From Escherichia phage ECO340P2: 64,000 nt of DNA. The stretch lies in the sequence record OP172792; one strand, written 5' to 3'. The stretch's first letter is position 1; each line of letters starts with the position of its first letter. The notes under the pieces were generated by a model. That model ran no database searches. It saw only the letters and a program-made list of their open reading frames with translations, and was not told the DNA's origin. A program made the translations under genes and the position numbers. This document shows positions 8,340 through 59,401 of this stretch, piece after piece.

Positions 8340-8469
8340 TAAATACTAATATTTAAATTCTTTTTAAAATAGCCAGTGTTCACACCACTAACTATGAGTT
8401 ATCGGTAAAGTGGTTACCGCCACTTGCCGAAGATTTACTCTGCTAAAGTAAGCTATATTAAAAAGAACT

Positions 8470-8555
8470 TGGCGGTAGATGTAGGACTCGAACCTACACG
8501 CCGTTTCCGACTACAGTTTAGCAAACTGTCGTGGCTACCATTTCACCAATCTACC
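8470..8555 (-). tRNA. tRNA-Ser (anticodon GCT), type II
   Basis: acceptor GGTAGAT/ATCTACC, G73, anticodon arm ACAGT-TTGCTAA-ACTGT, long variable arm, T-loop TTCGAGT. Confidence 0.85.
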
Positions 8556-8560
8556 TAATC

Positions 8561-8651
8561 TGGCGGAAGGAGGGAGAGTCGAACTCCCAAGGCTCTTTCA
8601 AGCTCGGCGGTTTTCAAGACCGTTTTCGTCGCCACGTCGATTTGCCCTTCC
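8561..8651 (-). tRNA. tRNA-Ser (anticodon TGA), type II
   Basis: acceptor GGAAGGG/TCCTTCC, G73, anticodon loop CTTGAAA, long variable arm, T-arm GGGAG/TTCGACT/CTCCC. Confidence 0.8.
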
Positions 8652-8660
8652 ATACTTATA

Positions 8661-8689
8661 ATCTAACATAAAATAATGTTAGTTGTCAA
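8661..8689 (-). promoter_or_regulatory. sigma70-like promoter (TTGACA-17-TTAGAT) upstream of the right tRNA sub-cluster
   Basis: reverse complement CTATTGACAA motif about 30 nt upstream of tRNA-Ser 5' end. Confidence 0.3.
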
Positions 8690-8884
8690 TAGTTTTTTAA
8701 AACATTTTACCATGAATGGTGACTCCACCAACCCCGTTCTCCACGAACGGTGCTCTTCGAGCATTTATGTCTTCTAATATAACCGTGGCCTTTGTTTATA
8801 ATGTCTGACATACTTGCCTCATTCTCTGCCACCATGATCAGTAGTGGGTTCAAATCACTTGAGCTAATTCATGTTAAAATGTTC

Positions 8885-8959
8885 TGGTGTCTTTACAAGG
8901 AATCGAACCTTGACTAAGAGTTTAGAAGACTCCTGTGCTATCCATTACACCATAAAGAC
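8885..8959 (-). tRNA. tRNA-Arg (anticodon TCT)
   Basis: acceptor GTCTTTA/TAAAGAC, anticodon arm GGAGT-CTTCTAA-ACTCT, T-arm CAAGG/TTCGATT/CCTTG, CCA. Confidence 0.85.
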
Positions 8960-8961
8960 GT

Positions 8962-9036
8962 TGGTGGCCCTGGCTGGTTTCGATCCAGCTACCTATCGGT
9001 TATGAGCCGACAGCTCTCCCATTGAGCTACAGGGCC
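8962..9036 (-). tRNA. tRNA-Met (anticodon CAT; second copy, possibly a different CAT isoacceptor)
   Basis: acceptor GGCCCTG/CAGGGCC, anticodon loop CTCATAA, T-arm GCTGG/ATCGAAA/CCAGC, CCA. Confidence 0.8.
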
Positions 9037-9282
9037 ATAAATGTGGTAACAGAGACGCTGACGATTGTAGAGAACCGCTACATTCTCTAAGACCAAGCCC
9101 AACTTTCAGCGTAAAAGTTCTTGAGCCGAGACTATTCCTTTTCCTCTTTGGTAGCTAACCTCTGAAGAAGTAGTCTCTAACACTACCGCAGTGCAAGCCC
9201 CTCTTAACAAAAGTCAACGACCCTGTTACCACACTTGATGAACGTATCCTAACATATGAAGGATACGTTTGTCAATAGTTAT

Positions 9283-9531
9283 TTAAGCATATTCTGCTAC
9301 TTCTTCACTATCTTTCTTTTCCAGAAGAGCAACAACCAAAGCTTCTGCGTTAAAAGTATTAATTTCAAGATCCATCTCTCGCATCAGAGCCAAGAAATCA
9401 ATAACTTTAACATCTTTAGTGATTACAATAGAAGTTGTACCATTGTTTTCAGATGTGTATTTTTCTGGATGGAAAAGAAAAACTGCATTGCCGTTACCAT
9501 CTTCAAACACGTGTTTTTCTAATAGAGACAT
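9283..9531 (-). CDS. hypothetical protein
   Basis: ATG preceded by AGGAGG; ORF-track N-terminal extension to 9597 lacks an RBS. Confidence 0.5.
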   Translation of the reverse strand: MSLLEKHVFEDGNGNAVFLFHPEKYTSENNGTTSIVITKDVKVIDFLALMREMDLEINTFNAEALVVALLEKKDSEEVAEYA

Positions 9532-9539
9532 TGTTCCTC

Positions 9540-9791
9540 CTAATCTGTTAGTTGTTCGTCCTCTACCAAGTTTGACACGAGAACGTCTGTTATACATTGA
9601 TGCTGATAAACCCTTTCGGGACTATCATCAAAAGCCAAACCTGTGCAAATAGAACAGAGGTCTGATTCCTTGATGACTCCATTTTTATCACGTCTGGAGT
9701 GGTTTGTCAAATGCCTATTACAAGCACGGCACCTAAAATAAAAGCTATTTTGCATATATCCTTCGAACCCCAAATGGGGAGTGATCGGCAT
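9540..9791 (-). CDS. hypothetical Cys-rich protein (zinc-finger-like CxxC pairs)
   Basis: 83 aa ORF with CRACN and CSIC motifs. Confidence 0.45.
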   Translation of the reverse strand: MPITPHLGFEGYMQNSFYFRCRACNRHLTNHSRRDKNGVIKESDLCSICTGLAFDDSPERVYQHQCITDVLVSNLVEDEQLTD

Positions 9792-9828
9792 CTCCTCACT
9801 TCTAGTTTAGCACGAAGGATATCTTAAG

Positions 9829-10014
9829 TCAACTAGGAATAATTTTATCCTTTTTGGTTTCATAACCAGTCCAATCTAAATCCTCCCAGCCTTCATCATC
9901 GTCTAACACATTGTCATCATCATAAGATGCAATGTTATAAATAGAACGTGGATTACAAGACATACAATCTTTAATAGGCACATGATGCCATTTGCACGGA
10001 TTCTCGCTAATCAT
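9829..10014 (-). CDS. hypothetical acidic small protein
   Basis: 61 aa ORF, last gene before the divergent AT-rich region. Confidence 0.45.
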   Translation of the reverse strand: MISENPCKWHHVPIKDCMSCNPRSIYNIASYDDDNVLDDDEGWEDLDWTGYETKKDKIIPS

Positions 10015-10495
10015 TACACACCTCCATTCTTGTTAAGATGTTCCGTACTGTACTTCATACTGATCTATAGATCAAGTATTATTTATAATAATTTATTATT
10101 TTATTTTTAATTGATAGAAGTTGATCTGTACGTACCAGTTCTGATACACTGTACCTGTTTGTTAGATCTAATAATTATTTATTATTAATATTTAATAATT
10201 ATTAATCTAGTACGGAGTACAGTACTTGAGTACAGAGTACTACATCAACAACCTAAAACCTTAACTCGCTGCGCTCGTTAATAGATTTCTAGGGTAGCAT
10301 ACTTCGAACACAAAAGTCAAGAGTTTTATTAAAAATTATTTTCTGTGTGCAAAAACCTTGCTTAAACAGGTAGCAATAGTATAGCCTATAACATAAGCTT
10401 CATAAGAGGCTCGTAGAGCAAGTTCACTTACTAGGTAAGGTGATTTATCATCTTATATATAAAAAGTGCGTCAGAGACGCGTTTAGGAGGTTAGA

Positions 10496-25566: not shown

Positions 25567-27807
25567 TTGATTCGTTTTGTAACTAAATCTAACGGTAAGA
25601 CAGAGGAGTTTAATCCAGAAAAACTTCGCAAGTGGTCTGAATTTGCAGCAGGTAAACTAAACTGGTCTGAAATTGAATTAGAAGCTGTGAAGCGGTGTTA
25701 TGACGGTGTGTCTACACGTGATCTGCATAAAGCAATGATTGCAGCGTGTATTGACAAGAAAACACAAGCTTACAGTGATATGGCAGGAAGACTTCTTCTG
25801 GGTATGATTTACAAACAGGCTCATGGGGGATACCACAGTATCCCTTCACTGAATACCTTTTATCATGATATGGTAGAACGTGGACATTGGGCTAAAATGG
25901 ATTATACTGATGAAGAGATCAAAGAAATCGGTAAGATTGTAAAGCATAATAAAAATCTAACTTATGGTTATTCTGTTTTACGTCAGATGGTAGATAAATA
26001 TCTTATTCGAGATGCAGTAAACGATGTTGTGCATGAGTCTCCACAGTTTCTTTTCATTGGTATCGCAATGAAGGTTATGGAGATCCAACCAAAAGAACGC
26101 CGTATAGAAGATATTAAAAAACTTTATACTTATGTTAGCGATCTTAAGATTAATCTGCCATCGCCGTATCTGACAACTCTACGAACTCCAATCAAAGGAA
26201 GTGCGTCTTGTTGTTTATTCCGTGCAGACGATACGGCAGAGTCTTTAGCCATTGCTAACTACTTAGCTCATGAGTATACGTTGAATAACGCAGGTATTGG
26301 TGTTAATCTTCAAACCCGTGCCACAGGTCAAGGTGTTAAGAATAATCGTATTATTCATGGTGGTCTTCTTCCGTATCTGAAATGGATGGAAGATAGTGTT
26401 GGAGCTTCGAAGCAAGCAAGCCGTGGAGGTAGTGCTACAGTTACCTTTACCATACTTGAACCAGATTTCGACGATCTGATTCGACTGAAGAATCCAACAA
26501 CACCTATAGATAAACGAGTAGACAAACTGGATTATTCTATTGTTGTTAACCGTTCATTCTTGCGTCGAGCAGCAAAAAACGAAGATTGGATGTTAGTTAG
26601 TTGTGATGATGCTCCTGAACTTTATGAAGCTTTGTATAAAAGTGAAGAAGAGTTTGATGCAGTTTATGACAAAGTAAGCCGTCGTCGCATTAAGAAAAAA
26701 TTTGTTAAGGCTCGTGATCTTCTGACAGAGATTATTGTTCAACGTGCAGAAACAGGACGTATTTACATGTTCTTTGCTGACAACGTTAACAACCATACAC
26801 CTTTCCTGGATACGGTGTATCAATCAAACCTGTGTCAAGAGATTTTCTTACCGACTAAAGCTTTCCACAATATGCCGGATCTCTTTACTGGTGAGAATAC
26901 TGAAGATCAAGAATTGGCTTTATGTTTCTTATCTTCTATTGTTGCTGGTCGTGTATTACCTGAAGAATATGAAGATGTTGCATACTACACTGTATTGACA
27001 ATTGACAACGTTATTGAAACAATGGATTATCCATTTAAACATAACGAAATAACTGCTAAAGCACGTAGATCTATTGGTGTAGGCATTACAAACTTAGCGC
27101 ATTACTTGGCAAGTAATTTTGTAAATTATTCAGATGCTTATGCTAAAAAATTAATGCATGAACTTGCAGAACGTCATTACTTTTGGTTGGCAAAAGCCTC
27201 TCTGCGTCTGGCTAAGGAAAAAGGTAATGCGGAGTGGATCGATAAGACCAAATGGCCTCAAGGTTGGCTACCAATTGACACTTATGTTAAAACAGTAGAT
27301 AGTATCGGTAATTTTGATCTTAAAATGGACTGGGAAGGCTTACGTGCTGAAATCATTGAACAAGGTGGTATCCGTAACAGTGTCTTGGCTGCTATTGCAC
27401 CTAATGAGTCCAGCAGTTTGGTAAGCAATACTACTAACTCTCTGTATCCTGTTCGTGATACCATTATGTATAAACAAAGTCAGAAAGGCAGTGTATTATT
27501 TATTGTTCCAGACTATGAAAAACTGAAAATGTTCTACCAATCTGCCTGGGATACTCCGGCTAAAGATCTTGCAGAAATGTATGGTATCTTTACCAAGTTT
27601 ACGGACCAAGGAATTTCTTGTGATTCTTGGTTAGATTATTCTAAATTGGTAGGGGGACGTTTATCAGTTAAAGAAGAGATGAAATTTATTTTGAACTTTG
27701 CTAGACTGGGTGGTAAGTCATTGTATTACCTTAATAGTAGAACAAAATCAGCAGATTCTTTAGCACAAGAAGATTCTGATGGTGGTTGTGAAGCTTGCAA
27801 GATGTGA
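25567..27807 (+). CDS. nrdA: ribonucleotide reductase large subunit (class Ia NrdA), TTG start
   Basis: 746 aa; N-terminal ATP-cone-like region, active-site NLCQEI, C-terminal tail ending CEACKM; RBS GGGAGGAG. Confidence 0.85.
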   Translation: MIRFVTKSNGKTEEFNPEKLRKWSEFAAGKLNWSEIELEAVKRCYDGVSTRDLHKAMIAACIDKKTQAYSDMAGRLLLGMIYKQAHGGYHSIPSLNTFYHDMVERGHWAKMDYTDEEIKEIGKIVKHNKNLTYGYSVLRQMVDKYLIRDAVNDVVHESPQFLFIGIAMKVMEIQPKERRIEDIKKLYTYVSDLKINLPSPYLTTLRTPIKGSASCCLFRADDTAESLAIANYLAHEYTLNNAGIGVNLQTRATGQGVKNNRIIHGGLLPYLKWMEDSVGASKQASRGGSATVTFTILEPDFDDLIRLKNPTTPIDKRVDKLDYSIVVNRSFLRRAAKNEDWMLVSCDDAPELYEALYKSEEEFDAVYDKVSRRRIKKKFVKARDLLTEIIVQRAETGRIYMFFADNVNNHTPFLDTVYQSNLCQEIFLPTKAFHNMPDLFTGENTEDQELALCFLSSIVAGRVLPEEYEDVAYYTVLTIDNVIETMDYPFKHNEITAKARRSIGVGITNLAHYLASNFVNYSDAYAKKLMHELAERHYFWLAKASLRLAKEKGNAEWIDKTKWPQGWLPIDTYVKTVDSIGNFDLKMDWEGLRAEIIEQGGIRNSVLAAIAPNESSSLVSNTTNSLYPVRDTIMYKQSQKGSVLFIVPDYEKLKMFYQSAWDTPAKDLAEMYGIFTKFTDQGISCDSWLDYSKLVGGRLSVKEEMKFILNFARLGGKSLYYLNSRTKSADSLAQEDSDGGCEACKM

Positions 27808-27814
27808 TAAAACT

Positions 27815-27838
27815 AGGGGCTTCGGCCCCTTTTTATTG
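27815..27838 (+). terminator. rho-independent terminator
   Basis: GGGGC-TTCG-GCCCC hairpin followed by TTTTTATT. Confidence 0.6.
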
Positions 27839-31602: not shown

Positions 31603-32103
31603 ATGGCTAAAGTAGTAGATGAGTTTGATATGCTACGAGTCGATGAAGGACTGAAGCTTACTGTTTATCAAGACCATCTTGGTTATTGGACAGTCGGCAT
31701 AGGACACCTTCTGACTAAAATAAAAGATAAAGCAAAGGCTATTCAAATCTTAGATAATCTTCTTGGTCGTAAGACTAATGGAGTTATTACAGAAAAAGAA
31801 GCCCGTCAAATCTTTGCTGACGATGTTGCAAAAGTGAAGAGAGACATAAAAAACAGTACTATCTTATCACCAATCTATGATAAGGTTAGTGATACTCGTA
31901 AATTGGGAATAATCAACATGGTTTTCCAGTTGGGGTTAAAAGGTGCTGAAGGGTTTCAAAATAGCTTGACTTTAATCAGCAATGCATATTATACTCAAGC
32001 AGGTAAAAACATGCGTAAAAGCCGATGGTATAGCCAGACGCCAAACCGTGCTGAACGAGTAATTAAAGTTCTGACTTCTGGAACTTTAGATGCTTACAAC
32101 TAA
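31603..32103 (+). CDS. endolysin, T4-type lysozyme (GH24)
   Basis: 166 aa; EGLKLTVYQDHLGYWTVGIGHLL matches the T4 lysozyme catalytic region. Confidence 0.85.
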   Translation: MAKVVDEFDMLRVDEGLKLTVYQDHLGYWTVGIGHLLTKIKDKAKAIQILDNLLGRKTNGVITEKEARQIFADDVAKVKRDIKNSTILSPIYDKVSDTRKLGIINMVFQLGLKGAEGFQNSLTLISNAYYTQAGKNMRKSRWYSQTPNRAERVIKVLTSGTLDAYN

Positions 32104-32140
32104 TAAAGGGGCTTCGGCCCCTTCTAAAAGGAGTGCTACT

Positions 32141-40095: not shown

Positions 40096-40104
40096 TAAAT
40101 AATA

Positions 40105-40126
40105 ACCCGCTTCGGCGGGTTTTTTA
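40105..40126 (+). terminator. rho-independent terminator
   Basis: ACCCGC-TTCG-GCGGGT hairpin followed by TTTTTTA. Confidence 0.6.
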
Positions 40127-43396: not shown

Positions 43397-44196
43397 TTTT
43401 TGTAAGTGGTGCAGGTTTAAGTGCAGACAGTGGGATTCGAACATTCAGAACAGACACAGATAGCGGTCGTGCTTTATGGGAAGAATACGATTTAGAAGAG
43501 GTCTGCAATATTGGAGCTTTCCAAGCAGGTTATCGTGTGAGAACATCTCCAGATCTTCCGGTGGTTGGAGGTGTAGACGAGAACGGTATAGATTTATATG
43601 CCAAAACACACGAATTTTATAACAAAAGACGTGTTGAGCTTAAAAACGTACAACCTAATGCTGCGCATCTTCAAATAGCCAAATGGTTTAAGGAATATCC
43701 TAACCAGGTAGTAAACTTGACAACAAATGTCGATGATCTACTAGAGCGAGCAGGGGTAGACAGGGACTCGGTTGTTCACGTGCACGGTTATCTTCCTGAA
43801 GTAGTCTGCCGTATGCACCCTGGAGATTACAAAACACTGGTGGATATTGGTTACAATAGTATAAACATAGATGATTATAACTGGGTGAAGCCTAATGTAG
43901 TCTTCTTTGGGGAAGCTGCTCCACTTTACACGGATATGTATCATATTTTTGATACATTGACGTCTCAAGATATGGTGATTGTAGTAGGCTGCTCTAATCA
44001 AGTTATCAATTTTAACTGGGAGCTTTTTCCTGCTCTTAACATCGGGACAAAAATGGTCGTAGTTAATCCAGGAGTTAATTACGAAGAAACACTTCTCTAT
44101 GAAGATCGTGGAGTTTTTGTTTACCGAGAAAAAGCTGTAACAGCCTTCAGTAATGAAGGTTTCATTAAAATGGTCGAAGACCACTTAAACAAATAA
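43381..44196 (+). CDS. Sir2-family (sirtuin-like) NAD-dependent protein
   Basis: N-terminal VIFVSGAGLSADSGIRTFR matches the sirtuin NAD-binding signature GAGxSxxSGIPxFR. Confidence 0.7.
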   Translation: MPRRVIFVSGAGLSADSGIRTFRTDTDSGRALWEEYDLEEVCNIGAFQAGYRVRTSPDLPVVGGVDENGIDLYAKTHEFYNKRRVELKNVQPNAAHLQIAKWFKEYPNQVVNLTTNVDDLLERAGVDRDSVVHVHGYLPEVVCRMHPGDYKTLVDIGYNSINIDDYNWVKPNVVFFGEAAPLYTDMYHIFDTLTSQDMVIVVGCSNQVINFNWELFPALNIGTKMVVVNPGVNYEETLLYEDRGVFVYREKAVTAFSNEGFIKMVEDHLNK

Positions 44197-44207
44197 ACCA
44201 CTCAAGG

Positions 44208-44228
44208 GGCTTCGGCCCCTTTTCTTAT
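44208..44228 (+). terminator. rho-independent terminator
   Basis: GGGGC-TTCG-GCCCC hairpin followed by TTTTCTT. Confidence 0.55.
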
Positions 44229-44837: not shown

Positions 44838-44861
44838 GAAAAAACCCGCCGAAGCGGGTTC
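44838..44861 (-). terminator. rho-independent terminator (leftward)
   Basis: reverse complement AACCCGC-TTCG-GCGGGTT followed by TTTTTT. Confidence 0.5.
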
Positions 44862-53668: not shown

Positions 53669-53896
53669 TTATTCCTCCATCTCAAACCATTCAGGGAACA
53701 CTTTATGGAAGACACGGGTTGTTTCCAAAAGGAATTCCAATTCTTTTTCCAGGTCTGCGTTCCAATCGTGCACTTTAACATTGATTGCCAATGCACTTGC
53801 ACGGCGACTTAATTCTTGACAGATTGGATCACACAGAACTATTGAGTCGTAAAACTGACAAACGGCCTCAAGTTCATACCAGTTATAATCCGACAT
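53669..53896 (-). CDS. hypothetical protein
   Basis: 75 aa ORF. Confidence 0.5.
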   Translation of the reverse strand: MSDYNWYELEAVCQFYDSIVLCDPICQELSRRASALAINVKVHDWNADLEKELEFLLETTRVFHKVFPEWFEMEE

Positions 53897-54222
53897 TATT
53901 CATCCTCCTCTGCAATACGATCTCTTACCCAATTAATCCTGTCCACGTTCAGGTGACATACCTCTGCATCTGATTCTAAGACATATGCATCGTAGTTCTC
54001 ATTGAAAGGGAGTTCTTGACTCAACCCTTTGTAGTAAAACTGTGAGTGCATTTCGTCTGACAAGGTTGTTATAAGGAGATTGTAGCCATCTGCGTGCACA
54101 TAATCGAACAAGTTGGCACACAAACCGCAATCTCGCCGAAAAGGTTTACCATCAGGAGCACCAACATCAATCCATGCTAGATAAATTTTATAAAACTCCA
54201 TCAACCCTGCGCTTGTTTTCAT
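53896..54222 (-). CDS. paralog family A member
   Basis: FYKIYLAWI, GAPDGKPF, GLCANL, LPFN, CHLNVDRINWVRDRI; closest to the 53137 member. Confidence 0.55.
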   Translation of the reverse strand: MKTSAGLMEFYKIYLAWIDVGAPDGKPFRRDCGLCANLFDYVHADGYNLLITTLSDEMHSQFYYKGLSQELPFNENYDAYVLESDAEVCHLNVDRINWVRDRIAEEDE

Positions 54223-54460
54223 TTAGCCACCTCGTTAGTTTTTCTTGCTCTTTGTTTGCGCGTTCTAAGCTTCTAAACTTTAAACAAAGGGAACGAGAAT
54301 CCCTACCCATGCACAAGCTTTCATCTAAGCTGTGCTCCCCAACCAACCAAAGAGAATATGTTTGAACATCTAACCCATAGTTTCTGTCTTTCCATAATCT
54401 CACCCCAAGAACATCAAAAGGCGCTTCCGCGACTAAAGAAAGAAACCGATCTTTATTCAT
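54188..54460 (-). CDS. hypothetical protein
   Basis: 90 aa ORF; RBS AAGGTGG. Confidence 0.45.
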   Translation of the reverse strand: MNKDRFLSLVAEAPFDVLGVRLWKDRNYGLDVQTYSLWLVGEHSLDESLCMGRDSRSLCLKFRSLERANKEQEKLTRWLNENKRRVDGVL

Positions 54461-54522
54461 ATTACACCACCTTGCTCACGTTGATAATGTATGTATACCA
54501 TACATAAAATAAATGTCAAGGC

Positions 54523-54723
54523 TTATCGACACAGATAGTTGTAACGATCTGCTTTATCCTCTGCTTCAGCAAAGTCAGCAATCAAGGAAGTTTTGAGTTC
54601 TTCCAACTCTTTCACCCAAGAGTCGTAATCGTCCTGTGTTTCTCCAATAGTTTGGAGAAAACAATCGTCGTAGCCAATAGACATGGCTAACTCGATAATA
54701 CGTTCCAGTTTTTCTTCCATCAT
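54523..54723 (-). CDS. hypothetical acidic protein
   Basis: 66 aa ORF. Confidence 0.5.
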   Translation of the reverse strand: MMEEKLERIIELAMSIGYDDCFLQTIGETQDDYDSWVKELEELKTSLIADFAEAEDKADRYNYLCR

Positions 54724-55082
54724 TTCTCTCCTTCTACAGGCTTCTGTTTAACATAAAAGTAAGCACCACGAGCAAGATACAAATCATGTTCAATATCGCT
54801 CACAGGAAAACCATCTGGATTTTTAAAACCATCTTCTACAGCCAAAATGAGAGATCGTAAACTGATAGCTAACAACTCCATTTGATCTTGTAGTTTTCTA
54901 TTTTCTGCGTAAAGGTTTTTGCATTTTTGTTCTGCATTTTTCCATTGTTCTAATGCATGATCATAGCGGTGCATAAGAATAGCTTTTTCTTGTTCACGCT
55001 TAAAAGTTTCTTCGCAAATGAAACCTGTGCCTAAACCAGTTTCTTCGTCTTTGACAAACACTTCAACAAAATCTTTAGACAT
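54720..55082 (-). CDS. hypothetical coiled-coil protein
   Basis: ATG after AGGAGA; ORF-track start 55202 overlaps upstream gene. Confidence 0.5.
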   Translation of the reverse strand: MSKDFVEVFVKDEETGLGTGFICEETFKREQEKAILMHRYDHALEQWKNAEQKCKNLYAENRKLQDQMELLAISLRSLILAVEDGFKNPDGFPVSDIEHDLYLARGAYFYVKQKPVEGEK

Positions 55083-55083
55083 A

Positions 55084-55347
55084 TTATCTCCTATTTGCTT
55101 TCGGATACTCCCAACCCTCTGGGAGATCTTCTTTACACATCCACTCAAAAGGCCAGCGACAATAACTGTGCCACTTTCCATTGAGATACAAACAATCTTC
55201 ATCTACTGGTCCACAAGGGTTGATAACTACAACACACCCTTTTGCTCGCCAATATTGAACTATTTCAGGGTAAAAACAAGAAACGTCGGTCCACTCCCAA
55301 ATACGTTCATCATTCAAACGGTATGCTGCTGGCAATGTCTCTTTCAT
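55084..55347 (-). CDS. hypothetical Trp/Cys-rich protein
   Basis: 87 aa ORF. Confidence 0.5.
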   Translation of the reverse strand: MKETLPAAYRLNDERIWEWTDVSCFYPEIVQYWRAKGCVVVINPCGPVDEDCLYLNGKWHSYCRWPFEWMCKEDLPEGWEYPKANRR

Positions 55348-55351
55348 ATTA

Positions 55352-55798
55352 TTAAACCTCTGTCAAAGAGAAACGCCAATCCTTACTACTACCTACGCCA
55401 AGGAAGATATAGTCTCCGGTACTAACGGAAATACGCCAAGCGGGAATCCAATCAGGAATCTCTGGCTTATGGCTGTAACCATAACGATCACCATCCGAGT
55501 CTGTTGCAATATAATTAACAAATTCAGGAACATCTAAAGTTTCACCTTGATACTCTACACGCTTGAAGCCATCTTTCACTTCTTTCTCACCTTCTACCAG
55601 ACAAGCAAGAAGTTTGATGTGAGGGCAAGTGAAATCTTGTCCTGGATAACGTGAACGGATATCAGTTAACAATGCGATCACAGCATCCGATAACTCTTTA
55701 TAATCCTCATATCTTACAAATGTGCCTTCTGTCGGATCATCAGGACACAAACGCCAAGCATCGTTGCAGTTTACAGCATAATGTCGCACTTTAGTCAT
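55352..55798 (-). CDS. hypothetical protein
   Basis: 148 aa ORF. Confidence 0.55.
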   Translation of the reverse strand: MTKVRHYAVNCNDAWRLCPDDPTEGTFVRYEDYKELSDAVIALLTDIRSRYPGQDFTCPHIKLLACLVEGEKEVKDGFKRVEYQGETLDVPEFVNYIATDSDGDRYGYSHKPEIPDWIPAWRISVSTGDYIFLGVGSSKDWRFSLTEV

Positions 55799-55808
55799 AA
55801 ATACCCCC

Positions 55809-56207
55809 TTATCGTTGCGTACAATCGGCTTCTAGAGTAAGAACATTCGTTATTGTTTTATCATTTTTTAGAAATGCAAACCAAGCTAAAGTGTCTCGAT
55901 ACTCTGTGCGCATCATCACAACTTCAGTAGTGCCAATAAATTGTTGTGAACCGTACATAGCACTACCATCTTTACTTTTTTCTCCTGTGTGTTGCAGAAT
56001 GCCACTCATCAAAGCACCACCTGAATTTTTAAGGATAAAGGAGTTATCTTTATTAATGACAACAGAAGCCATTTTCTTAGGACCAGAAATCACTTCACCT
56101 TTCAGATTTTTAACAACCACATCTGACACACACTCATAAACTTGAGACGCATTTGCTGTTCCAAGTGATGCAATGAGTAACAAGAAACCTACAATGATCT
56201 TTTTCAT
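55809..56207 (-). CDS. secreted protein (signal peptide)
   Basis: 132 aa; N-terminal MKKIIVGFLLLIASLGTANA. Confidence 0.55.
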   Translation of the reverse strand: MKKIIVGFLLLIASLGTANASQVYECVSDVVVKNLKGEVISGPKKMASVVINKDNSFILKNSGGALMSGILQHTGEKSKDGSAMYGSQQFIGTTEVVMMRTEYRDTLAWFAFLKNDKTITNVLTLEADCTQR

Positions 56208-56303
56208 ATAAACTCTCCTCTTTATTTACCCGACGCGCCCCCTGTTGGGCGGAAAGGGTTGTACGCAAAATTTTTAGCTCCAATCGTCGGGTGTCCCGAC
56301 TCC

Positions 56304-56510
56304 TTACGCTTTTAATGTTTTAACAGAATGACAAGCTTTGCAAACCATAACCGGAACAAGTTCGTCTCCATTATCCGCATAAATCACTGTTTTCTTCATT
56401 CTGCCACCACATGAACAATACTCTGTATGATCCACTGGAATATTAAATATTCCGTAATCACTTTCATATTGTTTCTTACATATGGACACTGCTTTTGTAA
56501 AACAAGACAT
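56304..56510 (-). CDS. hypothetical zinc-ribbon protein
   Basis: 68 aa; CSCGG ... CKAC. Confidence 0.5.
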   Translation of the reverse strand: MSCFTKAVSICKKQYESDYGIFNIPVDHTEYCSCGGRMKKTVIYADNGDELVPVMVCKACHSVKTLKA

Positions 56511-56512
56511 AC

Positions 56513-56734
56513 CTACTCCGAAAGAACATTCACTTCATCAGAGAAAAATACGTAATCACAACCTTCCCAAACATCTTCTTCAAACCACTCCCATCCCTCA
56601 ACTTTGGACATTTCTTCTATCGTAACAAAGAATGTTGTCATATCATCGCTAACAAGATGTGCTTCAACAACAAAAGGAATCTGAACATTCTCAAAACCAA
56701 CATAACCCAATACATCGCAAACTCTAATTTTCAT
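56513..56734 (-). CDS. small acidic protein, EWF..DYVFF pair member
   Basis: VEGWEWFEEDVWEGCDYVFFSDE resembles the 62019-62249 product. Confidence 0.5.
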   Translation of the reverse strand: MKIRVCDVLGYVGFENVQIPFVVEAHLVSDDMTTFFVTIEEMSKVEGWEWFEEDVWEGCDYVFFSDEVNVLSE

Positions 56735-56735
56735 A

Positions 56736-56936
56736 TTATGCTCCTTTGTAGATTATGTTGGTGCGTTCACACTCTGCCACCAGCAAGCGATTAGCAATGT
56801 TGTCCATAGGAACATCAATCTCTACGCTCCAGGCATTGATATACACTTCTTCAATCTTTGCTCCAAGCGTTTGTGCGATCAGAGCAACAGCCCCAGCATA
56901 TTCAAGTTTAATCTCAATTACCATTTTGCACCTCAA
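56736..56936 (-). CDS. hypothetical protein
   Basis: 66 aa ORF. Confidence 0.5.
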   Translation of the reverse strand: MRCKMVIEIKLEYAGAVALIAQTLGAKIEEVYINAWSVEIDVPMDNIANRLLVAECERTNIIYKGA

Positions 56937-56938
56937 GG

Positions 56939-57139
56939 TTATTTATCTTGCTTGTATCTTACAAGGCGATCACACTCTAGGTCAAGAAATTTCTCCGCAT
57001 TTCGTTCATGTTTGAGCACAATACATTGTTCTTTCCAGTCTGTAGCTCTTTGCTGCGCTGCTCCTGGGTCAAAATCCCAAAGCCATGCCGCGAAAAGAAC
57101 AACCATAACAATTATCAAGAAACTAAACACTATTGGCAT
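56939..57139 (-). CDS. hypothetical small membrane protein
   Basis: ATG after AGGAGGA; hydrophobic helix IVFSFLIIVMVVLFAAWLW. Confidence 0.45.
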   Translation of the reverse strand: MPIVFSFLIIVMVVLFAAWLWDFDPGAAQQRATDWKEQCIVLKHERNAEKFLDLECDRLVRYKQDK

Positions 57140-57444
57140 TGCACATCCTCCTGTGTAGCATGATCTTTTACCCATTTTATACGGGCAGCATTCAAATGCA
57201 ATAGCCCGTTTCTTTGTGCAAAATCATATTTAAACCAGTCTCCGTCATCAAACGGGTATTCTTCAGACAACCCTGCTTCTCGAAATTGCATTTGCATTTC
57301 ATAATTTAGATCATCGTAACCACCAGTCCAAAGGTAGAGGCAACTACATAATCCTTTATCATGCCAGAAAGGATTATTATCTGGAGCACCAGTTAATAGC
57401 CAGTTATGATATGCCTGATAAAATTCTTTAAGTTCTTCTGACAT
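57130..57444 (-). CDS. paralog family A member
   Basis: FYQAYHNWL, GAPDNNPF, GLCSCL, YPF, RIKWVKDH. Confidence 0.55.
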   Translation of the reverse strand: MSEELKEFYQAYHNWLLTGAPDNNPFWHDKGLCSCLYLWTGGYDDLNYEMQMQFREAGLSEEYPFDDGDWFKYDFAQRNGLLHLNAARIKWVKDHATQEDVQCQ

Positions 57445-57621
57445 TTAACCTCCTGTATACAGTGTTGAAAGATACACAGCAAAAGCATTCTCGGCTGTTT
57501 TCACCTCCTCTTCAAGATCTTCACGCTCTGCTGGCGTTAATGCATTCCGCACAGCAGCGTCTGCTTCTCGGATTTTTCTTACTAAACGTGAAACATCTTT
57601 CAATTGTTGAAAAGTAGCCAT
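57445..57621 (-). CDS. hypothetical small protein (58 aa)
   Basis: AGGAGA RBS; stop TAA immediately abuts the next ATG; missed by ORF track. Confidence 0.4.
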   Translation of the reverse strand: MATFQQLKDVSRLVRKIREADAAVRNALTPAEREDLEEEVKTAENAFAVYLSTLYTGG

Positions 57622-57636
57622 AATCTTTCTCCTGTT

Positions 57637-57921
57637 TTAGTTAGTGTCACGCCATTCGGCAATCTCTTCGGCTAAACGATCACAAGAATCGAAAGCCACT
57701 TTACCTTTAGTCTGATTTTCATATCGCACTTCCTTCAATGCGAGTAATGCATTCACCAGATTATCAACACCTTGATCATCCAGTGCAATAACATCAAAGT
57801 TAAACCCTGTATCAGTTGGGACTTTACGTTTTATAGTGTAATAGTCTCCTTCATGACGTTCAACATCCGCGTATGGGTAACTGCTGTTTGGATCATGTTT
57901 TACGCGAATAGATGTTTTCAT
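57637..57921 (-). CDS. hypothetical protein
   Basis: 94 aa ORF. Confidence 0.5.
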   Translation of the reverse strand: MKTSIRVKHDPNSSYPYADVERHEGDYYTIKRKVPTDTGFNFDVIALDDQGVDNLVNALLALKEVRYENQTKGKVAFDSCDRLAEEIAEWRDTN

Positions 57922-58391
57922 GTTTTGTTCTCCTCTTTAATTGCAACACGGAACTTATTAGCTTCTCTCACCTGGTGCATGAAGTCTTTCTTCTTCATAA
58001 TCCCGATGGACATTTCATCCAGTTCTTCTGGGTGAATCTGAAGATTACGGCGATCAGACAGGAACCAAGTTTTCTCCCACCAGAAGCGTTGATCCTCCTC
58101 TTCGTGATATTTATATGTCTCTTTTTCTTCTTCTGTGAGAAGTTTGAATCGGTTTTTCGCTTCGTACCTCATTGGGGTATGAAAAGGAATGCCATTATCA
58201 CCATTATACACCGCAGACGTACCCAGACAATAACCAGTTTCTGCGTCGATCATTTGGTAGTGAAACTCACACTCCAGTTCAACATACTCTAAATCCCCAT
58301 AAAAATCACTAATCAAGAAAGCAATGTAAGTTTCACCGTGTTCGGGAACAAATTCTTGCTTTGTCAACATCTCCAGTTTCAAACCTGCCAT
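57918..58391 (-). CDS. hypothetical protein
   Basis: 157 aa ORF. Confidence 0.55.
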   Translation of the reverse strand: MAGLKLEMLTKQEFVPEHGETYIAFLISDFYGDLEYVELECEFHYQMIDAETGYCLGTSAVYNGDNGIPFHTPMRYEAKNRFKLLTEEEKETYKYHEEEDQRFWWEKTWFLSDRRNLQIHPEELDEMSIGIMKKKDFMHQVREANKFRVAIKEENKT

Positions 58392-58403
58392 TGCTTTCTC
58401 CTT

Positions 58404-58655
58404 TTAGTCAAACCAGTTGTATTCAGAAGGGTAACGAGCGTAGTTTGGCTTGTACCCCAGCCTTTTCATCTTGACAGACATACGAGTGAAGCCAAAGGTT
58501 GTTTTGCCCTTAGACATAAACTTCTTCCCACTCTTCATTGGCTTCTTAGGGTCTTTGATCGTCTGGTGTAACGCTCGCGCAAGCCATAAAGTGTATGCGC
58601 TCGGCACTTGATTAACTTTCATCTTGTTACCTTTCATCATTTCACCTCGGACCAA
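58404..58655 (-). CDS. hypothetical basic protein
   Basis: 83 aa; Lys-rich. Confidence 0.5.
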   Translation of the reverse strand: MVRGEMMKGNKMKVNQVPSAYTLWLARALHQTIKDPKKPMKSGKKFMSKGKTTFGFTRMSVKMKRLGYKPNYARYPSEYNWFD

Positions 58656-58936
58656 TCAATAGTGATCCACTCGTATGCCCCGTTCAGATCCATTTCTTTA
58701 TAAACAACAAGCCCACGCTCACGAAGAATTGCTACTGCTTCATCCATCCATTTCACCTGATTGTAGATTTCCCCTGGGTGAGTAGGAGAATTATCCAAAC
58801 CAAAATCAGATGGTGTGAAATTTCTTGAAGAGTTCCCCGCTCGTGCTTCAGCAAAACATGTCTCGATCACTTCTTCAACAGGGAAGTTGAAGGAAGCTTC
58901 TTTTGCAATACGGCGTAACTGTTCAGTCAGATTCAT
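58637..58936 (-). CDS. hypothetical protein
   Basis: 99 aa ORF. Confidence 0.5.
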   Translation of the reverse strand: MNLTEQLRRIAKEASFNFPVEEVIETCFAEARAGNSSRNFTPSDFGLDNSPTHPGEIYNQVKWMDEAVAILRERGLVVYKEMDLNGAYEWITIDWSEVK

Positions 58937-58963
58937 CTTATTCTCCTTTCGTTGTGTGAAACA

Positions 58964-59401
58964 TTACAGCAGATCTAATGCTTTCAACTCTTCTTTCAAT
59001 GATTCAGGCAGGTCACATTCAATGTCAATCAGAGATAACAAGTGACCAACAATGCCTTCCAGATGTTGATACTCACTATAACTTATAAATTCAGAATTGT
59101 AAACAGAAACATCCTTAGTTTCTTTCACAACTTCCCCCGCAGACACGCACATAAAAAAGTTACGCTCTCCGCGAGCTAACAATATCTCCCAACTCCTGAA
59201 CGGATACTGTCCAGCTTCAATAATATCCCCGCTGTCCAATAAAGTCAATGAGCAAACAGACCCTGATTCACTAACATCTTCGACGCGGAAACAAGACCCT
59301 TCAATCAAAGCTGCCATTTTGAAATTTTCATCAGAGATCATAGAGTAAGCTTCACATGCAGCTTTGCTTTTGAAACAGTAAACAGCATTAGCTTTGAACA
59401 T
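58964..59401 (-). CDS. paralog family B member (MFKxG..Y.FKS N-terminus)
   Basis: MFKANAVYCFKS; tandem with three related ORFs. Confidence 0.55.
   Translation of the reverse strand: MFKANAVYCFKSKAACEAYSMISDENFKMAALIEGSCFRVEDVSESGSVCSLTLLDSGDIIEAGQYPFRSWEILLARGERNFFMCVSAGEVVKETKDVSVYNSEFISYSEYQHLEGIVGHLLSLIDIECDLPESLKEELKALDLL

Follow-up and report, generated by a model that had tools for sequence, protein, structure and literature searches.

A strongly conserved two-hairpin intergenic element in Phapecoctavirus, tentatively read as an intercistronic mRNA processing and leader module

Two stem-loops with an A/U-rich (RAUUW-type) single strand between them form the classical layout of an RNase E site. 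In T7-type RNase III sites and in the REP and malE-malF stabilizers, hairpins situated in the spacers of polycistronic messages leave protective 3' ends and set the relative expression of neighboring cistrons. Five T4-type phages have kept the RNase E sites around gene 32 while the surroundings were reorganized (PMC3014915), which provides a precedent for a conserved processing site in a phage operon. The element described here was found in a stretch of 64,000 nucleotides (nt) of Escherichia phage ECO340P2 (sequence record OP172792), hereafter the window, where it occupies a complete 96-nt intergenic spacer (56208–56303) between two minus-strand open reading frames (ORFs) of 68 and 132 amino acids (aa). 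The spacer is very probably a functional, selected non-coding element and, judging from its sequence, most likely acts on RNA, post-transcriptionally. As a tentative reading, it may be a cis-acting intercistronic module of mRNA processing or stability and a leader of the downstream gene.

The evidence for selection comes largely from the comparison of two clades. Bases 55300–57200 of the window share 100% identity with Escherichia phage ECO340P1 (OP172791.1; Phapecoctavirus, Stephanstirmvirinae; record position minus 84096 gives the window position) and 97–99% with around 60 further Phapecoctavirus genomes, which are referred to as type A. An exhaustive profile search for divergent homologs of the 132-aa protein in metagenomes yielded two groups. 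Type B comprises 12 metagenomic contigs (L023, L029–L039) with 64% protein identity to the 132-aa protein, a homologous spacer of 100 nt, and flanking genes with 69 and 65% DNA identity to those of the window. Within the spacer, the block GAGUCGGGACACCCGACGAUUGGAGCUAAAAAUUU[U/C]GCGUACAACCCUU, which is made up of hairpin 1 (P1), GAUUGGAGCU and AAAAAUUUYGCGUACAACCCUU, shares 48 of its 49 positions between the window and type B. When the 6.4-kb type-B locus is compared with all 64 kb of the window, no exact match is longer than a 35-nt run inside this block, and none of the remaining segments of that locus exceeds 86% identity. By a binomial estimate made in this study, at least 48 matches in 49 positions at a background identity of ∼67% would arise by chance with a probability of ∼1e-7. 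A covariance model of the element (R1) scores 119 bits on itself and 86.5 bits on type B.

Hairpin 2 (P2) changes in a different manner, its closing pairs being fixed and its interior free to change, whereas P1 and the ∼27-nt linker behind it are invariant in sequence. The interior has been rebuilt from CGCCC-AACAGG-GGGCG in the window to GACCA-UAG-UGGUC in type B with pairing retained, through one C-G to A-U double change (C-to-A in the 5' arm, G-to-U in its partner) and a shortening of the loop from 6 to 3 nt, and the closing ACCC/GGGU stem, the UAAA after it and the Shine-Dalgarno sequence are all kept. Purifying selection thus acts at the level of sequence on P1 and the linker, whereas P2 is retained at the level of structure.

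Variation within type A is distributed similarly. The spacer occurs once per genome, with 96–100% identity, in 63 GenBank phages, which are exactly those carrying the 132-aa gene. Among nine close relatives, a single site in 51 is variable over 56253–56303, the part that holds the block, compared with 6/45 in the rest of the spacer and 21/300 and 32/317 (7–10%) in the coding flanks, and six of the seven variable sites of the nine type-A copies are located within or just past P2. Here a C-to-U change retains a G-U pair, and the G-run in the P2 loop consists of four G's in most relatives and five in the window, which shifts all reading frames. Because of this 1-nt indel, and because the frame relation to the neighboring genes differs between types A and B, no coding frame is conserved among the relatives; third positions across the block are also as conserved as other positions, and together the indel and the third-position conservation rule out a coding or antisense micro-ORF. 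P1 is invariant in the nine Phapecoctavirus genomes and in all type-B contigs that reach it, nine of them complete and three cut within it. These last three independent contigs (L033, L034, and L035) start at position 1 exactly inside hairpin 1 (GGGACACCC...), and therefore the palindrome interrupts assembly from short reads, so that metagenomes may under-represent the element.

Read as minus-strand mRNA, the spacer runs UAA-GGA-[GUCGGG ACA CCCGAC]-GAUUGGAGCUAAAAAUUUUGCGUACA-[ACCC UUUC CGCCC AACAGG GGGCG CGUC GGGU]-AAAUAAAGAGGAGAGUUUAU-AUG, and its minimum-energy fold consists of just P1 and P2 (Table 1). P1 starts 3 nt past the UAA stop of the 68-aa gene. The 86-nt element as modeled overlaps this stop codon, and 4 nt separate its end from the Shine-Dalgarno sequence of the 132-aa gene, whose start codon is at 56205–56207. 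In type B, the 5' strand of the extended P1 is CCAG, which in the predicted fold would pair fully with the invariant UUGG. The initial annotation had singled out this segment as GC-rich within an otherwise AT-rich genome, and this is borne out: GC content is 52% in the spacer and 38% in the window, and 56227–56261 (77% GC) tops all 30-mers of the window, giving the sole 30-mer of at least 70% GC in the 64 kb, where the 99.9th percentile is 63%. Its nested inverted repeats, CCCGACG (56229–56235) and CGTCGGG (56285–56291), are likewise present, but the pairing between them is not conserved. The long-range helix they would form is less stable than the two-hairpin fold by ∼5 kcal/mol, a G-to-A change at the base, within an internal loop of P2, breaks this "nested" helix in four of nine close relatives, and type B has CUGCGGG (CTGCGGG) instead. 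Two further matches were rejected: a 10-nt inverted repeat, TTGCGTACAA, whose partner lies at the 3' end of the 132-aa gene is lost in type B and so is attributed to chance, and a partial match, TCGGGACACCC, at 63550 is compatible with chance.

Table 1. Positions of the element, its parts and the adjoining genes in the window.
Feature	Position	Strand	Basis or remark
Upstream gene, 68 aa, CxC...CxxC, zinc-ribbon-like, function unknown	56304..56510	-	ORF and annotation
Whole element as modeled, 86 nt, AGCG...GGGUAAA	56225..56310	-	Span of covariance model R1
Possible extended P1: AGC (56308-56310) with GCU (56276-56278); UAAG partly with UUGG	56276..56310	-	Predicted minimum-energy folds, both clades
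Ultra-conserved 49-nt block GAGUCGGGACACCCGACGAUUGGAGCUAAAAAUUUUGCGUACAACCCUU	56254..56302	-	48/49 identical to type B
Hairpin 1 (P1), GUCGGG-ACA-CCCGAC, 6-bp stem, 3-nt loop	56286..56300	-	Perfect inverted repeat GTCGGGTGTCCCGAC
A/U-rich core AAAAAUUUUGCG, predicted single-stranded	56264..56275	-	AAUUU (RNase E-type RAUUW motif); also heptamer A AAU UUU
Hairpin 2 (P2): outer ACCC/GGGU, 4x4 internal loop, inner CGCCC/GGGCG (56236-56251), loop AACAGG	56228..56259	-	GC peak of spacer
Shine-Dalgarno GAGGAGAG of 132-aa gene	56213..56220	-	Read from sequence; kept in type B
Downstream gene, 132 aa, N-terminal signal peptide	55809..56207	-	ORFan family restricted to these phages

If the element is a processing module, the exposed A/U-rich core between the hairpins would be the target of an RNase E-type host endonuclease or of a sequence-specific factor. 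After the cut, P1 would become the 3' protective hairpin of the upstream message and P2 a 5' hairpin near the start of the downstream message, and expression of the 132-aa gene would be uncoupled from that of its neighbor and tuned, the two genes being translationally abutted in relatives that lack the element. The core AAAAAUUUUGCG does possess the layout of an RNase E site, that is, a single-stranded A/U-rich RAUUW / RN-WUU sequence between stem-loops, with a predicted unpaired probability of 0.76, which is above 95.5% of shuffles of the flanks and is reached by 4.5% of them. An RNase III site of the T7 R-site type, with a helix of ∼20 bp or more, was not found in the element, P1 having 6 perfect bp and ∼11 at most with weak extensions.

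The element is part of an early operon and lies on the sense strand of its long minus-strand transcript. It is contained in a run of ∼57 small genes of unknown function (44.6–63.2 kb), all on the minus strand, in which spacers longer than 40 nt are rare. Such spacers usually carry a promoter with the consensus of the phage's own early promoters, CCTTGACA-N17-TAnAnT, or else a terminator-like hairpin with a GC stem and T's behind it. The 68-aa protein matches phrog_24734, and weakly the Pfam family RNHCP, and has homologs in every lineage examined. The family of the 132-aa protein comprises five 90%-identity clusters in total among 5.8 billion proteins. This protein shows weak repeated similarity to giant proteins of 2,000–5,000 aa (28–35% identity, E 1e-5 to 5e-7, up to seven stretches), which hints that the secreted ORFan may be a single module of a repeat domain.

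More distant relatives possess the genes without the element. In type C (L024–L028; 44–45% protein identity), the same two genes are joined by 12–15 nt, e.g., UAA-CAGAGGAGAAAUAAU-AUG, and the gene pair is therefore ancestral; the ∼85-nt element either entered the ancestor shared by A and B or disappeared from C. Import of the element and the 132-aa gene as one cassette is rejected, as the type-C phages have the gene pair and no element. In the likewise more distant phages phiWec179, phiWec186, phiWec188, phiWec190, and PsgM04F, the 68-aa gene and a 148-aa gene are kept, and a 20-aa hydrophobic mini-ORF replaces both the element and the 132-aa gene. This mini-ORF, MIEIIIFAALIIILGFLMYE, is unannotated and has its own Shine-Dalgarno sequence (L001 2724–2786, L002 2724–2786, and L003 2976–3038, being phiWec179, phiWec188, and PsgM04F), and PsgM04F has an additional 82-aa gene in the same slot. 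Three GenBank records of Phapecoctavirus or Phapecoctavirus-like phages, MG065650.1, OP562383.1, and OR584014.1, were deposited as Campylobacter, Acinetobacter, and Pseudomonas phages. As the first two share 97–99% identity with coliphages over the region, and PsgM04F is a more distant relative, these host labels are probably unreliable.

Beyond types A and B, the best non-self matches of the covariance model (14–17.5 bits, E 0.2–1.2) are GC-rich 61-nt segments in type C, ∼1 kb downstream of the 132-aa homolog. These read GGGC-CA-GUGGGG-GCUAA-CCCCAC-GCCC, G-AAAAUUU[C/U]GCG, (G)AA, ACCCC-loop-GGGGU, and (A/G)AGC-AUG, so that the layout of A and B recurs: a first hairpin, an identical core down to the T/C polymorphism, and a C-run/G-run hairpin ahead of a start codon. 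Conservation is distributed as in A and B, too: overall identity between the two type-C variants is 84%, the longest stretch without a mismatch (45 nt) is formed by P1' and AAAAUUU, and the second hairpin is variable. When the type-C segment was compared by BLAST with 50,697 phage records, one match emerged, the 20-nt exact GAAAATTTTGCGAAACCCCC, in Citrobacter phage Tr1 of the same subfamily (type E), where the module sits in a 106-nt spacer and consists of a long hairpin, the core, CCCC-CUAG-GGGG, a ribosome-binding site, and AUG. The genes flanking the modules differ lineage by lineage, while the orientation is always sense, with all copies and candidate relatives 5–27 nt upstream of a start codon. 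P1 is wholly different between the A/B, C, and E lineages, but frozen inside each. The core is predicted to be accessible in types A and B (0.76–0.80) and E (0.72), in each case within the top 1.5–5% of flank shuffles.

These likenesses are suggestive of a family module in which an invariant AAAAUUUYGCG core stands between a hairpin particular to each lineage and one formed by a C-run and a G-run, and on balance the A/B and C/E modules are probably truly related. A reciprocal model built from types C and E only ranked type B first (13.2 bits, E = 0.27) and left the window copy at background (8.8 bits) because of its long P2 insert; with type A at background, the wider family is therefore not proven. 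No further lineage came from pattern scans of IMG/VR (chance matches in high-GC contigs or none), from a 20-mer scan of JGI metagenomes (one more Phapecoctavirus and one chance match), or from scans of GTDB (none with the 20-mer, ∼120 chance matches with a looser pattern). In unrelated low-GC phage and Oscillospiraceae contigs from IMG/VR and GTDB (L045, L047, L099, and relatives), AAAATTTTGCGAAA(A)CCCC was seen directly before TTGACA-N17-TATAAT, occupying the position of an UP-like element upstream of a consensus promoter.

The type-C segment lies in frame within a called ORF of 153–155 aa, and such ORFs read through the whole hairpin-core-hairpin module (L024 4180–4647, L025 3922–4389, and L027 2029–2490). 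The heptamer A AAU UUY is here in phase with the ORF and followed by a 5–6 nt spacer and a CCCC/GGGG hairpin, with a stop in the −1 frame 15 codons later. The site is a candidate dnaX-like −1 frameshift site, or alternatively two genes fused across an intergenic element. The latter may be the case because the C-terminal part of the ORF, past the internal AUG, is weakly homologous to a free-standing 76-aa gene of another phage (25% identity, E = 3e-5). The 155-aa protein has no homologs that could reveal an empty site.

The initial annotation had offered a strong terminator, an RNA processing site, or a regulatory RNA structure as explanations of the segment. The first does not hold, as set out below, but a processing or regulatory RNA is still the best reading, and the conservation looked for in related phages, with the 49-nt block 98% identical between clades whose flanking genes share 65–69%, makes it more plausible. 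A processing module in particular is supported by the 48/49 conservation of the block over those flanks, by the survival of P2 pairing through sequence replacement, and by the sense orientation throughout and the predicted accessibility of the core in A, B, and E. Several points weigh against it. Only A and B are securely homologous, and the covariation amounts to one double change plus indels. Folding, which was also put forward as a check, returned the two local hairpins, but the energy of the whole spacer is unexceptional against composition-matched shuffles (z = −1.3 on the minus strand and −1.1 on the plus strand). Since its raw energy is nonetheless in the top 1.3% among the 96-nt windows of this genome, the stability of the spacer is mostly due to GC content and the two local hairpins. 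The type-C module lies inside an ORF, and its core is predicted to be paired with an upstream GCGARAUU (unpaired probability 0.21), a pairing that both variants retain through their differences (G-U to A-U, G-C to G-U), so that the models may not carry over from one lineage to another. Cleavage by an RNase at the core is also something that we infer purely from the sequence. Moreover, the degenerate specificity of RNase E alone leaves a near-perfect 49 nt unexplained, the P1 loop and the GAUUGGAGCU flank included, and such invariance would fit a sequence-specific binding partner better. Such a partner, whether protein or RNA, is therefore a serious rival or complement to the processing module.

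In this alternative, the element would be an RNA binding site for a phage or host protein or a small RNA, e.g., a translational operator of the 132-aa gene or a nut/put-like site through which the elongating polymerase is modified, with P1 and the linker as the recognition element and P2 as a generic structural partner. That P1, its loop and the 27-nt linker stay invariant to the nucleotide while the flanks diverge by ∼33% is typical of recognition, a lineage-specific yet frozen P1 would be expected for a co-varying cognate phage factor, and the site is present in one copy per genome. However, the element has no boxA-like sequence and no candidate partner, the Shine-Dalgarno sequence is unsequestered in the predicted folds, and the homology of A/B to C/E is no more than suggestive; a binding site, whilst possible, is considered somewhat unlikely. 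It is rather doubtful, albeit conceivable, that the element is the first example of an undescribed family of RNA modules with a new function, each present once per genome, fixed in orientation and located in an early operon of a Stephanstirmvirinae phage. If this is true, the family would be under stronger purifying selection than the neighboring genes and would relocate between gene contexts, once into an ORF, in which it has the form of an in-phase −1 frameshift cassette, and its function could be that of a docking site for a phage factor, a self-processing RNA, or a portable recoding or expression switch.

A role at the level of DNA appears improbable; in this reading the 15-bp palindrome beside the AAAAATTTT bend would serve as an operator, as a signal for replication or packaging, or as a linker for recombination where two modules meet. 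The palindrome is perfect, stands at an A-tract/T-tract junction and is single-copy, and the junction is plastic, with a mini-ORF in the slot of phiWec-type phages and PsgM04F and flanking genes that vary by lineage. Yet orientation relative to transcription is equal in all four lineages, iterons and repeated copies are absent, and the retention of P2 pairing indicates a single-stranded nucleic acid. Promoter geometry is lacking as well: no sigma-70 promoter (−35/−10, 16–18 nt spacer, at least 9/12 matches) was found in 56208–56303, and neither sigma-54 nor MotA-box geometry was found when the sequence was read by eye.

About equally improbable is a selfish or neutral GC-rich palindromic insertion, or the relic of a coding linker with a −1 frameshift cassette (A AAU UUY, 5–7 nt spacer, hairpin). 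The element is indeed located between genes that abut in outgroup lineages, related-looking modules exist at other loci, one of them in frame inside an ORF, and one frame of the window element reads ...NFAYNP..GG.S, like the type-C linker ...NFAETPEGGVS. Heptamer, spacer, and hairpin formally constitute a frameshift signal (A AAU UUU, the 7-nt spacer GCGUACA, and P2), and the corresponding heptamer is in phase in type C. In the window, however, the heptamer is +1 relative to the upstream gene, behind its UAA and without a start codon, and its frame differs between types A and B; being in no translated frame, it cannot have frameshifting as its function. In two independent lineage pairs, moreover, the conservation of the block greatly exceeds what neutral DNA or a relic would show. 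The covariance model found no second copy in the complete 151-kb genome, where the 11-mer AAAATTTYGCG has two occurrences, the other being near record position 9778 in an AT-rich repeat region without hairpins. One copy per 151 kb, and one place per record in the 63 phages, exclude a recurrent promoter motif and a mobile element of the multi-copy kind (MITE, REP, PeSL). An origin from the host was rejected, as nothing in 5,426 E. coli genomes matched the whole spacer, and scans of GTDB genomes and IMG/VR did not find exact 20–24-nt pieces of it.

An intrinsic (Rho-independent) terminator or attenuator closing the upstream transcription unit is very unlikely. The spacer does contain two stable GC-rich hairpins, as expected of such signals (P1 −9.6 and P2 −15.4 kcal/mol, each folded alone), but no U-run comes after either one: GAUUGGAGCU stands behind P1 and AAAUAAAG behind P2, the plus strand is likewise without a U-run, and a terminator scan of 54000–59000 gave no match at the element. 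The spacer also lacks a promoter for the downstream gene, so that termination would silence the 132-aa gene. GC-rich perfect 6-bp hairpins are a non-random class in this genome, with ∼15 sites in the window and 1.1 in shuffles, and most of the others are terminator-like, several with a TTCG loop; they differ from the element in having GC stems, often with UUCG loops, that are then followed by T's. One such terminator-like hairpin, AAGGGGCTTCGGCCCCTT, occurs three times (27806–27831, 32098–32123, and 44196–44221), and AACCCGCTTCGGCGGGTTTTTT occurs twice in opposite orientations (40104–40125 and 44839–44860), which suggests terminators at strand switches. Least probable of all is hidden coding, whether by a plus-strand antisense micro-ORF (TTG-YAKFLAPIVGCPDS...) or by a small ORF in the sense direction. 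The plus-strand frame is open in both clades and both block substitutions are synonymous in it. However, two transitions 3 nt apart are synonymous in one frame per strand almost automatically, and 1 of ∼16 third positions changed against a flank divergence of 31–35%, so that constraint is at the nucleotide and not the protein level. The start context is poor, no plus-strand ORF of at least 30 aa covers the spacer, and in most relatives the G-run indel disrupts the 49-aa minus-strand ORF that starts with TTG.

Comparison with described RNA classes gave no assignment. The Rfam scan suggested in the initial annotation produced no family at gathering score and none that is plausible at E ≤10: with Rfam 15 (riboswitches, ribozymes, CRISPR-DR, phage RNAs) the window matches only tRNAs, located elsewhere, and within 56100–56400 there are four matches to eukaryotic or unrelated families (E 1.4–7.6, 12–15 bits). 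A riboswitch, a small ribozyme and a CRISPR repeat (the idea of an RNA anti-CRISPR) were rejected for want of a plausible match at that threshold. ARAGORN and RF00005 detected no tRNA, tmRNA, or tRNA fragment at the element, tRNA genes being found solely at 7114–9036. That minus-strand cluster holds 10–11 genes (Met x2, Ile, Pro, Gln, Gly, Thr, Asn, Ser, and Arg), with an extra RF00005 match at 8255–8339 that ARAGORN does not call. Rfam has no model of the element, no description of it was found, and full-text searches found no Phapecoctavirus transcript maps.

Some other features of the genome were also recorded. Small early protein paralogs (...WL..GAPD..PF...GLC...RI.WV.D) are present in multiple copies (53896–54222, 57130–57444, ∼48998, and 53160; also L044 3879–4574) and account for the direct-repeat families D1 and D9, and phage Tr1 has a tandem-duplicated 231-aa version that matches at least six loci in ECO340P1. 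Two long gene-free regions of 1.3–1.6 kb, one from window position 63214–64000 onward (record 147310–148934) and the other at record 8775–10119 (L042), may be origin or early control regions; one has ATCATGGCAA/ATGAGAATGA-type motifs and the other many AAAATTTAAAGTTT-like repeats.

Phapecoctaviruses are common therapeutic-candidate coliphages, with early regions that consist almost wholly of unannotated small ORFs, and the fact that the best-conserved stretch of this region is non-coding marks a control point for post-transcriptional regulation. If the look-alike modules are true relatives, they would make up a new family of phage RNA motifs, one for which Rfam has no entry, and if the element is merely RNase E and stabilizer punctuation, it is an ordinary device in a new place.

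Amongst known systems, the PeSL cassettes of T4-type phages and the GC clusters and palindromic elements of yeast mitochondria and Rickettsia (RPE) are similar in that a GC-rich stem-loop is found at the boundaries of small early ORFs in a plastic AT-rich region, as an apparent insertion with look-alike modules elsewhere. Unlike these, the present element has one copy per genome, no internal early promoter, strong purifying selection, and no terminal or target-site repeats that hold across clades. With dnaX-type −1 frameshift signals (X XXY YYZ) it shares A AAU UUU, the 7-nt spacer, a stable hairpin and an SD-like GGAG upstream, but the window heptamer is untranslated, and an in-phase position within an ORF is seen solely in the type-C candidates. 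The genome's own intrinsic terminators (GGGGCUUCGGCCCC and then U's) also have a GC-rich perfect stem in an intergenic spacer, whereas the element has no U-tract, a loop of ACA and not UUCG, and a conserved 27-nt linker with a second hairpin behind it. Spacer hairpins in a polycistronic message are common to the element and to T7-type RNase III sites and the REP and malE-malF stabilizers; P1, however, at 6 bp (∼11 with weak extension), is too short for a standard RNase III substrate and has no similarity to T7 R sites, and unlike REP the element is single-copy. The phage RNase E sites of T4 gene 32 (at −71 and −1340) likewise place an A/U-rich single strand with a RAUUW-like sequence between stem-loops in an early or middle polycistronic message, and are likewise conserved among related phages although their neighbors are rearranged (PMC3014915). 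The differences are that conservation here spans 49 contiguous nt, beyond what RNase E needs, that the two share no sequence similarity, and that cleavage here is putative. Although a member of none of the families tested, the element resembles intercistronic processing and stabilizer elements most.

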